Positions 2,327 to 10,332 of a stretch of DNA of 10,933 bases are shown here, piece by piece. The DNA comes from a virus (Duplodnaviria; Heunggongvirae; Uroviricota; Caudoviricetes). Numbering within the stretch: the first letter of the stretch is position 1; the number at the start of each line of letters is the position of its first letter. The translations under genes were made by a program, and so were the position numbers. The notes under the pieces are model-generated. The model saw only the letters and a program-made list of their open reading frames with translations. It was not told the DNA's origin and made no database searches. Location: IMG/VR virus record IMGVR_UViG_2690316233_000003; one strand, given 5' to 3'.

Positions 2327-3703
2327 TCATACGTCCGCCCCTTGTGCATATCGTCTGCCACGCGCAGCAGGTGCATTTGATGCTGTGCAAATCTGTCTGG
2401 CTTCATCCTGGTCACATGCAACAAAGTGTCCGTTACAGAACCGCTGGTAAACCGTACCAAGTGAGCCAAAACGGTTTTTCGTCACGATGATTTCAGCAAA
2501 TGGCGCGGCGCTACTGTTCTCGTCATATACCGCTTCCCGATAGAGCATGATGATTGAGTCTGCGTCCTGCTCAATGCTTCCTGAATCACGCAAATCTGCG
2601 TTTGTCGGGCGTTTGTTTGGTCGCTTCTCAACATCGCGCGAAAGCTGACTCAGGGAGATAACAGGCGTTTTCAGGTCTTTCGCCATCGCCTTCAGGCTTC
2701 CGGAGATGTGAGCAATTGCAAGGTCGTTGCGGTCTGCTTTCGGCTTCTCAATCAGGCCAAGATAATCCGCCATGATGAGTGACAGGTTTGGATTTTCCTG
2801 TTTGTGCCGTTCTGCGATTGAGCGTATTTCTTCGACCGATAACCGCGAGGCATCGACTACCCATACATCCAAATCCGCAAGCTGACTCATGCCGTTAGCA
2901 ACACGTGCCCAGCCCTCATCATCCATCGATGCAGGATTTCGCAGCACGCTAACCGACATCCTCCCGGCGTTGGCAATGCTTCGCTCTGCAATCTGCAATG
3001 CGCTCATTTCCATCGAGAAAATCAACACTCCGCGCCTGACGTCAGAACCAGGAATAACGCGGCTTGCAACGCCTTCGGCAATCTTCAGCGCCAGTTCGGT
3101 TTTCCCCATACCAGGACGAGCAGCGATTATCACAAGGTCTTCTGCGTTCATCCCTCCGGTGATGGCATCAAGTTCTTCGATTCCGGTCTTCAGGGTATCT
3201 GACTCTTCTCCGTTCCTCAGACGCCTGTCAAGCGTGTCAGTGTAGTCAGTAATGATTTCCCCTAACCGTACCGGTTTAACCTCGTCACGGGGCTTTCTGA
3301 TGGCTGAGAGACGCTTTACAAGCTCATCCATCGCCTGACTCGATGCGTCGATGGTTCCGCTCTGAATTGGTTCACGCATTTCATCCATGATTTCCAGAAC
3401 CAGACGGCGGTGATAGTTATCCGCGACCATTCCGGCATATCCCTTCAGGTTTGCGGCACTCGGGCAGTTTTTGCTGGTCATCAGGATTGACGTGAAATGC
3501 TCCTCTCCGCACGCCTCGGCAACCATCAGCGCGTCGATTAGGTTTCTGTTTCTCGCCTGCTTACGGATAACTTCGAAGGCTTTCCTGTAGAGCGGAATTG
3601 AAAACGCTTCCGGCTCAAGCGTTGCCAGAACGTCACTGGCGGTTGGAGTTAATCCACCAATCAGCAGGCCACCGATAACACTCGCTTCGATATCCTGTCT
3701 CAT
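2327..3703 (-). CDS. replicative DNA helicase, DnaB family (phage-encoded, P22 gene 12-type)
   Basis: 458-aa ORF with a Walker A P-loop ([15 protein letters not shown]) and DnaB-like N-terminal region. Its ATG (3703-3701) overlaps the stop of the O-like gene (ATGA). Confidence 0.9.
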
Positions 3704-4647
3704 GCAATCCCCCTGTCTGCAAACTTCCCTTCCCGAACTCCCGTTAACGAATCTTCTCTCAGCAAGTAATCAAAATCAGCCGTCCAGCCAGTGTCGTTGT
3801 CTCCGAAGTAAAACGGCTTGGCCTGATGCACAAACGCCCTGACATACGCTCTGAAACCGTCCACGTTTGGCGTTTTCAGTTGCGGGATGATTTTCTTCAG
3901 GCGGCGTTTGCGTTTCTCGTTGACCGCAACAGCGTGTGGCAGTCTGTCACCGACTTCGGTGTTGTAGGCGTTCAGGAAGGATTCGTAGTCGATTCGTTCT
4001 GCCTTGCGACGTTCAGGTTTAACCTGCTCATCGCCTCCCCCATTGGGGGGTAGGGGGGTATTATTTATATTCTTGTTAATACCTTCTTGTTCATGATGTG
4101 CGGTTGTTTGTGCGGCTTCATGTGCGCTTTCATGTGCGGCATGTACGCTGAAAGCCGCGCCATTACTGGCTTCATCATGTGCGGCATCATGTGCGGTTGT
4201 TTGTGCGGCTTCATGTGCGGGTGAATTGTCCATTTTTTGAGCATATTCATGGTAATTTGTGATGGTGATCACACGACCTTTTTGCTTCTCTCCATCAATG
4301 GTGATCATCCCCTCTTTCACAAAAACCTGAAGCATCCGCTCAACCTGATCACGGCTTGCTGGCTTGCCATGTCTGTCGCATAACTGAAGACCTAAATCAG
4401 CTGCTGTCACAACCAGTTGACCGGGTTGCAGATGCCATTCATGACCTTTGAAGTTCGCTTTGTATGGCTTTCTGGCGGCATTCAGGAGAAGGTTTTCCCA
4501 CAGGGTGCGAAGATAAACATCTTTCGCCCATGACTGTTTCAGAATGCTCCGGTACAACGGAATGTAACCAGTTTTCTGGTTCTCCATCCTGTTGCTCCTG
4601 CGCTCGTGTGCGGCGCTGAAATCGTAGATTTTTGCTGTATTGCTCAT
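3700..4647 (-). CDS. replication initiator, lambda O-like N-terminus; origin iterons lie inside the gene
   Basis: 315-aa ORF. N-terminus [10 protein letters not shown] resembles lambda O (MTNTAKILNF). A central low-complexity repeat (HEAAQTTAH / HDAAHDEA) is encoded by the DNA iterons. Directly followed by the helicase gene. An alternative internal start at Met21 (4587) has a better SD (AGGAG). Confidence 0.85.
4036..4225. repeat. ori-like iteron array: two clusters of four 12-bp-spaced TGTGCGG cores, an AT-rich tract and a G/C near-palindrome
   Basis: TGTGCGG (or a one-base variant) starts at 4097, 4109, 4121, 4133 and at 4178, 4190, 4202, 4214. A block of about 31 bp is duplicated (about 4096-4127 and 4188-4219). 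AT-rich segment about 4058-4090; CCCCCATTGGGGGGTAGGGGGG at about 4036-4060. This architecture parallels the lambda origin inside O. Confidence 0.7.
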
Positions 4648-4649
4648 AA

Positions 4650-4922
4650 CTACCTGCCTTGACGAAAGACCTTAAGAACATCGTTAAACTGACTTACGGA
4701 TATGTCTTCTTTGAGCAGCTTTTCCAGAAATGCGTTTGGAATGAACGTATATCCCTCCTCTTTTGGTAGAGACGGGAGCAACGCCCTCGCCTCAGCCTTC
4801 AGAAGCTCAGTTCTGGCAACTTTCACAAAAGAGATTTGAGTTCTTTCATCAATGGAACGAAGGAAGCGCAAACGCTTAGCTTCTTTGTGTGTATCAGGTG
4901 GATTAAAGCCTTTGTTTCGCAT
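4650..4922 (-). CDS. hypothetical basic protein (90 aa) between cII and the O-like gene
   Basis: ATG 4922-4920 with GAGGT upstream; stop 3 nt before the O-like ATG. The 194-aa track ORF 4650-5234 is this gene plus a spurious read-through in a cII-overlapping frame. Translation MRNKGFNPPDTHKEAKRLRFLRSIDERTQISFVKVARTELLKAEARALLPSLPKEEGYTFIPNAFLEKLLKEDISVSQFNDVLKVFRQGR. Confidence 0.6.
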   Translation of the reverse strand: MRNKGFNPPDTHKEAKRLRFLRSIDERTQISFVKVARTELLKAEARALLPSLPKEEGYTFIPNAFLEKLLKEDISVSQFNDVLKVFRQGR

Positions 4923-4944
4923 ATAATTACCTCGTTGGATGTTG

Positions 4945-5241
4945 TTAAAATTCCATTTGTATTTGATCAGAACGCTCGGTCTTGCACACCGGGCGTTTTT
5001 TATTGGTGAGAATCGAAGCAACTTGTCGTGCCAATCGAGCCATGTCGTCGTCGACGACACCCCATTCAAGAACAGCAAGCAGCATTGAGAACTTTGGAAT
5101 CCAGTCCCTCTTCCACCTGCTGATCTGCGACTTATCAACTCCCACAGCTTCCGCTGTCTTCTCAGTTCCAAGCATTGCGATTTTGTTAAGCAACGCACTC
5201 TCGATTCGTAGAGCCTCGTTGCGTTTGTTTGCACGAACCAT
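4945..5241 (-). CDS. cII: transcriptional activator CII (lambda-type)
   Basis: Translation MVRANKRNEALRIESALLNKIAMLGTEKTAEAVGVDKSQISRWKRDWIPKFSMLLAVLEWGVVDDDMARLARQVASILTNKKRPVCKTERSDQIQMEF is near-identical to lambda CII as I recall it. The track ORF starts further upstream; the true start is the ATG at 5241-5239. Confidence 0.95.
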   Translation of the reverse strand: MVRANKRNEALRIESALLNKIAMLGTEKTAEAVGVDKSQISRWKRDWIPKFSMLLAVLEWGVVDDDMARLARQVASILTNKKRPVCKTERSDQIQMEF

Positions 5242-10012: not shown

Positions 10013-10035
10013 TTCAGAAAAATAAGGATTTAATT

Positions 10036-10332
10036 ATGCCAGCGCCTCTGTATGGTGCGGATGACCCGCGCCGCTGTTCCGGCAATTCCGTATCGGAGGT
10101 GCTGGATAAATTCAGAAAAAACTACGACCTGATAATGTCGCTACCGCAGGAAACGAAAGAGGAAAAGGAATTTCGCCATTGTATATGGCTTGCAGAGAAA
10201 GAAGAACGCGAGCGAATTTACCAGACATCAATCCGACCATTCCGCAAAGCCACATATACCCACTTCCCTGAATATATCGATCCGCGCCTGCGTAATTACC
10301 GCTCACGCTATGGCGCTATCAGTAATGACTGA
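10036..10332 (+). CDS. hypothetical 98-aa protein, possibly Abc2-like (anti-RecBCD)
   Basis: AAGGA SD upstream of the ATG at 10036. Size (98 aa) and position next to the erf module match P22 Abc2; sequence identity is not verified from memory. Confidence 0.45.

Follow-up and report, generated by a model that had tools for sequence, protein, structure and literature searches.

A putative replication origin of short direct repeats inside the initiator gene of a lambdoid prophage

The window analyzed here is a 10,933-nt stretch of viral DNA, and the features under discussion all lie on its minus strand (Table 1). The initiator gene belongs to the lambda O / P22 gene 18 family: residues 20-132 of its product match Pfam Phage_rep_O (E=3.6e-15), and the gene is 98.7% identical to the annotated O gene of phage CUS-3. 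It is followed by a gene for a DnaB-type replicative helicase (DnaB_C, E=9.5e-78; DnaB, E=4.5e-13), whose counterparts in CUS-3 and ST104 are annotated as replicative helicases. The early-right region with cI, cro and cII shows 98% identity to CUS-3 and to Stx2a phages. The initiator reading frame contains a second in-frame ATG at codon 21 (4585-4587) with AGGAG just before it, and this codon may be the real start of the protein. The sequence AGGAGCAACAGGATGGAGAACCAG is kept in relatives, and MENQK is the start of many database initiator proteins.

Table 1. Features of the initiator gene, its internal repeat region and the adjoining helicase gene (positions in the window).
Feature	Position	Strand	Sequence or basis
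DnaB-type replicative helicase gene (P22 gene 12 type)	2327..3703	-	overlaps the initiator stop codon
Initiator gene (lambda O / P22 gene 18 family)	3700..4647	-	ORF list and translation; 315 codons counted from the first ATG
C-terminal domain coding, P22 gene 18 type (about aa 217-315)	3703..3999	-	DNA identity to P22-like phages
G+C-rich inverted repeat	4034..4058	-	CCTCCCCCATTGGGGGGTAGGGGGG; coding strand CCCCCCTACCCCCCAATGGGGGAGG (CCCCC / AAT / GGGGG)
AT-rich tract, candidate unwinding region	4059..4091	-	6 G/C in 33 nt (18% GC); A-rich on the coding strand
Repeat cluster 2, adjoining the AT-rich tract	4092..4139	-	four 12-bp units
Cluster 2 units	4128-4139; 4116-4127; 4104-4115; 4092-4103	-	CCGCACATGAAA; GCGCACATGAAG; CCGCACAAACAA; CCGCACATCATG
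Non-repeat spacer between the clusters	4140..4172	-	33 nt in 29 of 29 parsed loci
Spacer motif (about 24 nt)	4146-4169	-	CCAGTAATGGCGCGGCTTTCAGCG; in the spacer of the window
Repeat cluster 1, promoter-proximal	4173..4220	-	four 12-bp units; kept in 29 related loci, same position and register
Cluster 1 units, coding strand	4209-4220; 4197-4208; 4185-4196; 4173-4184	-	CCGCACATGAAG; CCGCACAAACAA; CCGCACATGATG; CCGCACATGATG
Winged-helix DNA-binding N-terminal domain coding (about aa 21-137)	4237..4587	-	AlphaFold2 model

The AlphaFold2 model of the initiator is of moderate quality (19 sequences, mean pLDDT 57) and consists of two folded domains separated by a low-confidence linker (aa 138-216, pLDDT <50). 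The N-terminal domain (pLDDT 70-88 across aa 30-137) contains helices at 82-88 and 99-111 and strands at 115-120 and 124-129, in which aa 99-111 form the predicted recognition helix and aa 115-129 the wing. A Foldseek search with the model gave no significant fold match, the hits being weak winged-helix regulators alone (E about 0.07 or worse), and no sequence relative was found in the PDB. The C-terminal domain is helical in the model. We presume that it contacts the helicase, as inferred from lambda O and P22 gp18. The repeats described below encode aa about 143-190, inside the linker, which agrees with their placement between two domains by the initial annotation.

That annotation had counted eight TGTGCGG cores inside the gene. 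Seven exact copies are present in the array (4097, 4109, 4133, 4178, 4190, 4202 and 4214), and the eighth slot, at 4121, reads TGTGCGC. The heptamer occurs 8 times in the whole window against 1.23 expected, a number reached in none of 200 shuffles. The arrangement into two clusters of four, each at exactly 12-bp spacing, was described correctly, and the units are indeed in frame with the minus-strand reading frame, whose translation contains the repeated peptide quoted there. The jump from one cluster to the other is 45 bp start to start, which, against a spacing of 12 bp, shifts the register of one cluster by 3 bp relative to the other. A higher-order duplication in the array is shown by a perfect 31-bp repeat (4096-4126 and 4189-4219, offset 93 bp). 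The units are direct, with an asymmetric 8-bp core and without the 18-19-bp dyad of the iterons of lambda and P22; that they are shorter than the lambda iterons had been noted. No inverted copy of the core was found within the array. In the two CCGC[A/G]CA classes (see below), most relatives have CCGCRCAYCATG as the last unit of cluster 2. The eighth exact TGTGCGG of the window, a solitary one at 4607-4613, was considered as an autoregulatory site and rejected: close relatives that share the repeats lack it, others with unrelated repeats have it, and since its presence does not follow the repeat type it looks like a chance occurrence.

Downstream of the array in the direction of transcription lie an AT-rich tract and a G+C-rich inverted repeat, the near-palindrome of the initial annotation. 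The tract includes the lowest G+C content of the gene (0.20 in the 30-nt window 4060-4089) and holds two copies of TTCTTGTT 14 bp apart (AACAAGAA on the coding strand), and AACAAGAAGGTAATAACAAGAAT within it is kept across repeat classes. The ends of database matches meet here: P22-like phages match 3700-4076 at about 96% DNA identity, whereas their N-terminal part differs, and Klebsiella phages match 4064-4600. Judged by these match ends, the AT-rich tract is the joint between a module of N-terminal domain and repeats and a module of C-terminal domain and helicase. A near-identical inverted repeat occupies the same place in gene 18 of ST104 (annotated as similar to P22 gene 18). Most loci have an inverted repeat of other sequence at this position, irrespective of the type of C-terminal domain, with CCCAC-gaa-GTGGG and CCCGC-gag-GCGGG among the variants.

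The layout is kept in about 35 enterobacterial relatives. Twenty-nine loci were parsed in full, out of 36 genome loci plus phage records, and every one of them retains 3+3 or 4+4 units at 12 bp, the 33-nt spacer and the AT-rich tract. The third-codon positions of the cores are near-fixed. Among 140 units of the CCGCACA class they are C in 138, A in 137 and T in 120 (1.3-1.9 bits), compared with 0.54 bits at the third position of four-fold codons that are invariant in these genes. By this measure the DNA of the array is constrained beyond the requirements of the peptide, in agreement with the dual constraint proposed initially. Nine loci form a second class (CCGCGCA), in which position 5 of the core is G in 55 of 56 units; the change from GCA to GCG is synonymous for alanine, and GCG is the rarest alanine codon in these loci (12/107). 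Only two protein columns, A82S and D100H, separate the two classes.

Residue 100, at the start of the predicted recognition helix, differs with the repeat class (D, H, Q or K). There are five such classes, and they track this residue and the helix-turn-helix half of the N-terminal domain. The link between class and residue 100 rests on few clades, and physical linkage could contribute to it, because the helix-turn-helix coding sequence directly adjoins the repeats. Relatives with N-terminal domains of 46-52% identity show the same layout with other repeats and unrelated linker peptides (SPDEPCDKPSD and GVEGSDEPPVE are examples). Overall, the repeats move with the N-terminal domain, and the right-hand inverted repeat with the type of C-terminal domain and helicase partner. 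These comparisons predict a specificity pair, Asp100 with CCGCACA versus His100 with CCGCGCA, the base change in the core being synonymous.

Taken with the order of its elements, which along transcription (repeats, AT-rich tract, inverted repeat) is that of lambda, as the initial annotation had it, and of P22, the segment 4034-4220 is very probably the replication origin of a lambdoid E. coli prophage, located inside the gene of its own initiator. Origins of this kind are known from lambda, P22 and phage L; the present one is built from short direct repeats. No reports of binding, footprinting or plasmid replication for this origin type were found in the literature, and searches for the repeat sequences, the motif sequences or CUS-3 plus iteron returned nothing relevant.

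By analogy with lambda and P22, we infer initiator binding, DNA opening and helicase loading as follows. The winged-helix N-terminal domain would bind the eight 12-bp direct repeats (core CCGCACAT, coding strand), and the bound initiators would build a multi-protein complex over about 130 bp. This complex would strain and then open the adjoining AT-rich tract, upon which the C-terminal domain would recruit the phage's own DnaB-type helicase, the product of the next gene. The lack of dyad symmetry and the 12-bp spacing suggest that the units probably receive one DNA-binding domain each, head to tail. One 12-bp unit would then be the counterpart of a single half-site in a lambda iteron, and eight units that of lambda's four dimer sites. 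The mode of binding is a guess, since direct 12-bp repeats differ from the dyad-symmetric, O-dimer iterons of lambda. If it holds, this origin provides a second well-defined model of how lambda-family initiators read DNA, by short direct repeats and not by dimer sites.

The lambda origin likewise lies in the middle of the initiator gene, between the domains of a protein of the same Pfam family, and includes initiator sites, then an AT-rich tract of some 35-40 bp whose coding strand is rich in A, and finally an inverted repeat. It differs in having four dyad-symmetric iterons of about 19 bp, each for an O dimer, in place of eight 12-bp direct repeats with an 8-bp core; it lacks an element like the conserved 33-nt one that splits the clusters in the window; and its partner is the P loader instead of a DnaB-type helicase. 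In Klebsiella and Yersinia relatives of the N-terminal domain, the AT-rich tract is followed by the lambda-type ...GAGAATTCTGGCGAATCC..., and the next gene bears the annotation replication protein P or DNA replication protein.

The P22 type (ST104) shares with the window the C-terminal domain (about 96% DNA identity), the type of helicase partner, an AT-rich tract with two short repeats before the inverted repeat, and a nearly identical right-hand element (CCCCCTTACCCCCTAACGGGGG against CCCCCCTACCCCCCAATGGGGG). Unlike the window, it has another N-terminal domain, four dyad-symmetric repeats of about 18 bp (TTAGCC...GGCTAA) and no central spacer motif.

The closest architecture is that of gene 18 of the phage L / ST64T type, with 3+3 short direct repeats, a 33-nt spacer containing CCAGTAATGACGCGGC, and an AT-rich tract followed by an inverted repeat, all inside the initiator gene and with a DnaB-like helicase downstream. 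Two equal clusters of short repeats (4+4 in the window) and a 33-nt spacer with CCAGTAATGRCGCGGC are common to both. The phage L repeat TGTCCAACGGA recurs at 11 bp, as opposed to CCGCACAT at 12 bp, and the two initiators share no more than 22% identity. The phage L genome paper (PMC8022706) records the corresponding array as a putative origin (rep_origin 31649-31725 in MW013502) and describes six imprecise 11-bp repeats, with no mention of a two-cluster layout or of the spacer motif.

The division into two clusters could also mean that the array binds the initiator but serves in part for copy control, cluster 1 titrating or pairing initiator molecules (compare incA of P1) and cluster 2 alone acting as the origin. 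Alleles with one cluster of 3-5 units and no spacer motif do occur in nature (proteins of 284, 288 and 292 aa, and versions of 264 and 268 aa). They retain the cluster adjoining the AT-rich tract, and this, like the 3-bp offset between the clusters, speaks for a separate role of cluster 1. It may be that half of the array is dispensable, or else that the prophages carrying these alleles are defective. Against such a division of labor, the viable phages inspected have the complete gene (948 bp in CUS-3 and Kapi1; full-length matches in HF4s, Gally and JEP4), and the parsed loci, which come from different species, keep both clusters without exception and in equal number. Equal numbers suggest a symmetrical structure and not an accessory array, and we consider the copy-control reading unlikely.

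A second alternative holds that the repeats have no role as DNA but serve the protein as a His/Ala-rich linker (HESAH, HExxH-like), selected as a peptide or made by slippage. They are in frame within a linker predicted to be disordered, and the copy number of natural alleles differs in steps of 4 and 31 codons, which fits. Conservation, however, tracks the 8-bp DNA core rather than the codons: three third-codon positions are near-invariant, the first base of the first codon of each unit varies (giving P, A, T or S), and one clade alters all its units by a synonymous base. Furthermore, distant relatives hold the DNA periodicity with unrelated, histidine-free peptides, and in phage L a period of 11 bp makes a one-unit peptide repeat impossible. 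A purely peptide-level explanation is therefore very improbable.

It is less probable still, to the point of being barely credible, that the repeats are bound by a host factor such as DnaA or by another phage regulator while the initiator sites lie elsewhere, since relatives with similar hosts differ in the core, which goes with the helix-turn-helix half of the initiator, and no other repeated element was found within the gene. The core agrees with the DnaA box consensus at only 4-5 of 9 positions.

The stretch between the clusters is conserved more widely than anything else in the region and, to judge by this, is no mere gap. Strong conservation is seen at several of its third-codon positions among the 29 parsed loci, and it carries a motif of the form CCAG-N5-R-N-C-R-N-GGC-Y-T..AG, which window 4146-4169 fits and which elsewhere occurs inside or beside a replicon-specific repeat array. 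Representatives of other replicon types share 18-24 of the 24 motif positions, compared with at most 17 in random 5-kb sequences, and the motif was seen flanked by repeat arrays in 10 of the 13 further contexts inspected. Matches were found at lambdoid O-type origins of several repeat classes, at the phage L-type origin, in the G+C-rich stretch of P1 oriR, in P1-like RepB plasmids, in a satellite in E. coli Nissle 1917, and in Prim-Pol, D5-type and AAA_25 helicase replicons.

In P1 oriR, the sequence AAGCCAGACGTGGCGCGGCCTGCAACGATC lies between the fifth iteron and the GATC repeats. Of 30 positions compared with the spacer AAGCCAGTAATGGCGCGGCTTTCAGCGTAC of the window, 22 agree, including 18 of the 24 that make up the motif, and with respect to repeats and opening region both elements face the same way. 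In P1 the element touches the opening region, whereas in the window the second repeat cluster intervenes. The P1 origin is otherwise unlike that of the window: it is intergenic, depends on DnaA and Dam, and uses 19-bp iterons with an unrelated Rep_3/RepA initiator. Its parts are the RepA iterons, the G+C-rich stretch, GATC 7-mers and DnaA boxes. The role of the G+C-rich flank of P1 "has remained unclear" (2016 review, PMC5043065).

A tentative reading, to which we give somewhat less than an even chance, is that the motif is a putative sequence-specific working part common to many unrelated enterobacterial mobile-element origins. Its reader would most plausibly be something common to all these replicons, either a host factor or the priming machinery. 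The presence of the motif at origins with unrelated initiators suggests a shared, previously undescribed host-dependent step, and the motif, about 24 nt long, may matter more than the origin in which it was noticed. If true, this reading would assign a function to the G+C-rich stretch of the P1 origin and establish the motif as a new common module of repeat-based origins.

One specific idea is that the motif acts as a start signal for the host primase DnaG. The motif begins with CAG, which puts CTG, the start signal favored by DnaG, on the complement, and the 11-base stretch AGTAATGGCGC matches the usual primer length. The motif is not known to fit sigma-54 or sigma-70 promoters, the DnaA box, the IHF or Fis sites, the marbox, or the Ter, dif/cer, Chi, ops or nut sites. 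A search of Rfam with 3900-4400 returned nothing meaningful. A spacer hairpin (AAGCC / GGCTT) was rejected: in the independent contexts compared by eye only the invariant CC...GG is complementary, with no convincing compensatory change.

There is a resemblance, provided that 5 nt are removed, between the 5' part of lambda oop (reverse complement GATCCAGTAATGACCTCAGAAC) and the Xenorhabdus form of the motif. This is an unproven lead: orientation and position differ, and the oop segment is not the published 'ice' site.

This type of origin is common. Of 5,426 complete E. coli genomes, 281 contain the 231-bp origin segment, as do 48 Stx2a-converting phages in the phage collection searched, which makes this origin type relevant to the replication of these toxin phages after induction. 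The origin of the satellite gave no match in the phage collection; the motif-bearing satellite itself was found in 424 of the 5,426 E. coli genomes.

Judged from its gene content and from the identity of its O gene to those of phage CUS-3 and other phages, the window, read on the minus strand, is the early-right region of a lambdoid prophage. Upstream of the initiator gene are genes for a helix-turn-helix protein and an S24-peptidase repressor (Pfam); at its other end, the initiator stop and the helicase start overlap. The initiator gene shares 98-99% identity with the O gene annotated in CUS-3, and with the O genes found in phages HF4s, Gally and JEP4 and in many Stx2a-converting phages. Its actual start codon is uncertain, because AGGAGCAACAGGATGGAGAACCAG (4585-4610, minus strand) reads as a ribosome-binding site followed by an ATG at codon 21, where many database entries begin the protein (295 aa). 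This stretch is nearly invariant among relatives, and the preceding 20 codons are variable. In phage Kapi1, the small ORF directly upstream of the initiator gene (locus L248, 626-898) carries the annotation note "CDD:Phage_rep_O"; the ORF in the counterpart position of the window (4650-5234, minus strand) gave no Pfam match. The upstream ORF is possibly a partial duplicate of the initiator N-terminus.

Features of the origin-like region, and further occurrences of the spacer motif (L-numbers denote retrieved loci or records)
Feature	Position	Strand	Description
Initiator ORF	3700-4647	-	315 codons; Pfam Phage_rep_O on residues 20-132, E=3.6e-15
DnaB-type helicase ORF	2327-3703	-	DnaB_C, E=9.5e-78
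Repeat cluster 1	4220 down to 4173	coding strand (-)	12-bp units CCGCACATGAAG, CCGCACAAACAA, CCGCACATGATG, CCGCACATGATG
Spacer, 33 nt	4172-4140	coding strand (-)	AAGCCAGTAATGGCGCGGCTTTCAGCGTACATG
Repeat cluster 2	4139-4092	coding strand (-)	units CCGCACATGAAA, GCGCACATGAAG, CCGCACAAACAA, CCGCACATCATG
AT-rich tract	4091-4059	coding strand (-)	AACAAGAAGGTATTAACAAGAATATAAATAATA
G+C-rich inverted repeat	4058-4034	coding strand (-)	CCCCCCTACCCCCCAATGGGGGAGG
Spacer motif, window	4146-4169	-	CCAGTAATGGCGCGGCTTTCAGCG, between the two repeat clusters
Spacer motif, L124	3686-3709
Spacer motif, L247	3809-3832
Spacer motif, L130	about 10023-10046
Spacer motif, L127, L197, L218, L146, L135, L203

The initial annotation described eight TGTGCGG cores at 12-bp spacing, flanked by an AT-rich tract and a G/C near-palindrome. 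Two clusters of four units at this spacing (45 bp apart, start to start) and both flanking elements are indeed present, but only seven cores are exact, the remaining slot reading TGTGCGC. TGTGCGG occurs eight times in the window against 1.2 expected, a count reached in none of 200 shuffles, and the G+C minimum of the initiator gene (0.20) falls at 4060-4089. The eighth exact copy stands alone outside the array, near the 5' end of the gene (4607-4613). It was rejected as a meaningful site, since its presence does not track the repeat class in relatives, and it seems to have arisen by chance from encoding the peptide SAAHER.

Relatives of the N-terminal domain, taken from phage records and one genome per species (36 loci), share a common plan. 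All 29 loci parsed in full contain 3+3 or 4+4 units at 12-bp spacing and a spacer of exactly 33 nt; the tract AACAAGAAGGTAATAACAAGAAT belongs to the plan, and the last unit is CCGCRCAYCATG in most of them. The units are read in the frame xCC GCA CAT nnn, and in the CCGCACA class (140 units) the third-codon positions of the core are nearly fixed (C in 138/140, A in 137/140, T in 120/140), with less than 0.6 bit at unit positions 9-12. Invariant four-fold-degenerate codons in the N-terminal domains of these loci served as the control: their third positions hold 0.54 bit, and the majority base has a mean frequency of 0.55. A second class, found in nine loci, has G at core position 5 in 55 of 56 units (CCGCGCA), converting the alanine codon GCA into GCG, which is silent in the protein and the rarest alanine codon in the genes of these loci (12/107). 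Because this silent change is fixed across the units of the array, peptide selection cannot account for it. Distant relatives, with N-terminal domains 46-52% identical, keep the plan with different repeats (for example C[CG]CGAT[GA]A, GTCGAA/GACGAG and GAGGTAACA), which encode unrelated peptides without histidine. These observations argue for an array that functions as DNA, beyond encoding a repeated peptide, and agree with the earlier proposal that one sequence is under constraint as an origin and as coding DNA alike.

The repeats are also linked to the initiator protein. Only two alignment columns of the N-terminal domain, A82S and D100H, separate the CCGCACA from the CCGCGCA class, and the remaining repeat classes have Q or K at position 100. 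An AlphaFold2 model built from 19 sequences (pLDDT 70-88 over residues 30-137) predicts a winged helix-turn-helix with helices at 82-88 and 99-111 and a β-hairpin at 115-129, so residue 100 would open the presumed recognition helix. Residues 138-216, modeled with low confidence, are coded by 4000-4236, and all the origin elements therefore fall within the linker joining two folded domains. Some loci are mosaic, the first 70 residues matching one class and the helix-turn-helix half the other (L021 compared with L003, L017 with the window initiator), which suggests that the repeats follow the DNA-binding half of the domain, an argument somewhat weakened by the physical adjacency of that half to the repeats.

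Natural alleles among database initiator proteins differ by 31 residues (93 bp, a cluster plus spacer) or by 4 residues (one unit). Alleles with two clusters, measuring 315 aa when counted from the first ATG or 295 aa when counted from Met21, are by far the commonest; at 90% identity they form protein clusters with 409, 294 and 1,458 members. One-cluster alleles have 3, 4 or 5 units (proteins of 284, 288 and 292 aa, counting from the first ATG) and lack the spacer motif; three-cluster alleles measure 346 or 326 aa and four-cluster alleles 357 aa. The database alleles P0001, P0006, P0016, P0038, P0044, P0046 and P0051 span one to four clusters, each of 3 to about 10 units. In the viable phages CUS-3 and Kapi1, whose genes were inspected, the gene is 948 bp long with two clusters; HF4s, Gally and JEP4 match it from end to end, and it is also present in Stx phage TL-2011a. 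A single three-unit cluster without spacer occurs in a Symbiopectobacterium genome bin (L040, 2001-2700), where the N-terminal domain carries frameshifts and stops; this is probably a decaying prophage within a symbiont genome.

P22-like phages match the C-terminal domain and helicase (about 96% over 3700-4076), and Klebsiella phages match the N-terminal domain and repeats (about 80% over 4064-4600). Since the former matches end and the latter begin at 4064-4076, the conserved AT-rich tract appears to be the recombination joint of the two halves of the replication module. The right-hand inverted repeat goes with the type of C-terminal domain. At its position, gene 18 of ST104, whose annotation notes similarity to P22 gene 18, carries CCCCCTTACCCCCTAACGGGGG, and relatives with a lambda-type C-terminus have a lambda-like sequence (...GAGAATTCTGGCGAATCC...), which we take to be the inverted-repeat region of ori-lambda. 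Other C-terminal types carry other inverted repeats, including CCCAC-gaa-GTGGG versus CCCGC-gag-GCGGG.

Conserved, DNA-constrained and initiator-class-specific repeats, an AT-rich tract and an inverted repeat are thus established inside an initiator gene adjoining a helicase gene. This is the defining layout of the lambda and P22 origins, with different and short repeats, as initially suggested, and the element would work like them. By analogy with these origins (summarized in PMC7466680 and PMC5043065), the N-terminal domain would bind the repeat units, the resulting complex would distort the DNA and open the AT-rich tract, and the C-terminal domain would recruit the phage helicase. However, the dyad-symmetric dimer sites of lambda and P22 are absent here. 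Because the repeats are direct and follow one another every 12 bp, each unit probably takes one DNA-binding domain, head to tail, and the eight units would then correspond to lambda's four iterons, which comprise eight half-sites. The 12-bp period exceeds the helical repeat, so alignment of the proteins on one face would favor untwisting, which could pass to the AT-rich tract. The reading frame does not set the repeat period, because in phage L the period is 11 bp.

The array is ordinary in function, though a neat case of dual constraint; the part surprising to specialists is the spacer motif, a candidate functional element common to different replicons. The open-access literature yielded no description of the CCGCACAT repeats, of their arrangement in two clusters or of the spacer motif common to these replicons; older print may hold some. 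Several third-codon positions in the left two-thirds of the spacer are conserved within the family, and the region gave no match in Rfam. By sequence, the motif recurs at origins with unrelated initiators, usually with the repeats of the respective replicon flanking it. In phage L, the region annotated as a putative origin (MW013502, 31649-31725) shares the common plan. Three copies of TGTCCAACGGA, spaced at 11 bp, precede a 33-nt spacer (AACACCAGTAATGACGCGGCTCACAGCAAATGT) and three more follow it; next come an AT-rich tract and an inverted repeat. The phage L initiator nevertheless has only 22% identity to that of the window.

Scanning viral contigs for the exact pattern CCAGTAATGRCGCGGC gave 66 distinct contexts. 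Similarity extends (GGC-YTNYAG) in 37 of them, and the remainder look like chance matches. Besides O-type genes, the extended matches adjoin unrelated replication genes: a D5_N/DUF5906/Pox_D5 helicase-primase, Prim-Pol with PriCT_2, Prim-Pol with DUF5906, an AAA_25 helicase, a Rep_3/RepB initiator, another Phage_rep_O protein (with palindromic repeats) and a 405-aa winged-helix protein. Next to such genes, the motif lies inside or beside a replicon-specific repeat array in 10 of 13 contexts. Where the neighbor is the helicase-primase, the replicon is a satellite that encodes capsid, small terminase, primase, Icd and integrase proteins. E. coli Nissle 1917 carries it, as do 424 of 5,426 complete E. 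coli genomes. All 24 positions of its motif agree with those of the window, but the flanks are unrelated.

The match beside RepB falls in the origin region of P1-like phage-plasmids, where about 195 bp separate the motif from the RepB gene downstream; a 32-nt query matched 566 plasmid records, mostly non-mobilizable 85-175-kb E. coli plasmids. In canonical P1, the annotated order of oriR is the fifth RepA iteron, GCGATACACTTCT, AAGCCAGACGTGGCGCGGCCTGCAACGATC, GATC 7-mers and DnaA boxes. Between the oriR segment and the window spacer, 22 of 30 positions agree (manual count); over the 24-nt motif 18 agree, compared with at most 17 in random 5-kb sequences. This segment is presumably the "G+C-rich stretch" of the P1 origin core, which Brendler, Abeles and Austin reportedly studied in 1991. 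The role of such G+C-rich origin flanks "has remained unclear" according to a 2016 review (PMC5043065).

In lambda (J02459, about 38650-38672), the 5' part of oop RNA (GATCCAGTAATGACCTCAGAAC), directly upstream of gene O and in the opposite orientation, resembles the Xenorhabdus form of the motif (CCAGTAATGACgcggcCTCAGAC), interrupted by a 5-nt gap; this likeness could be chance or a remnant.
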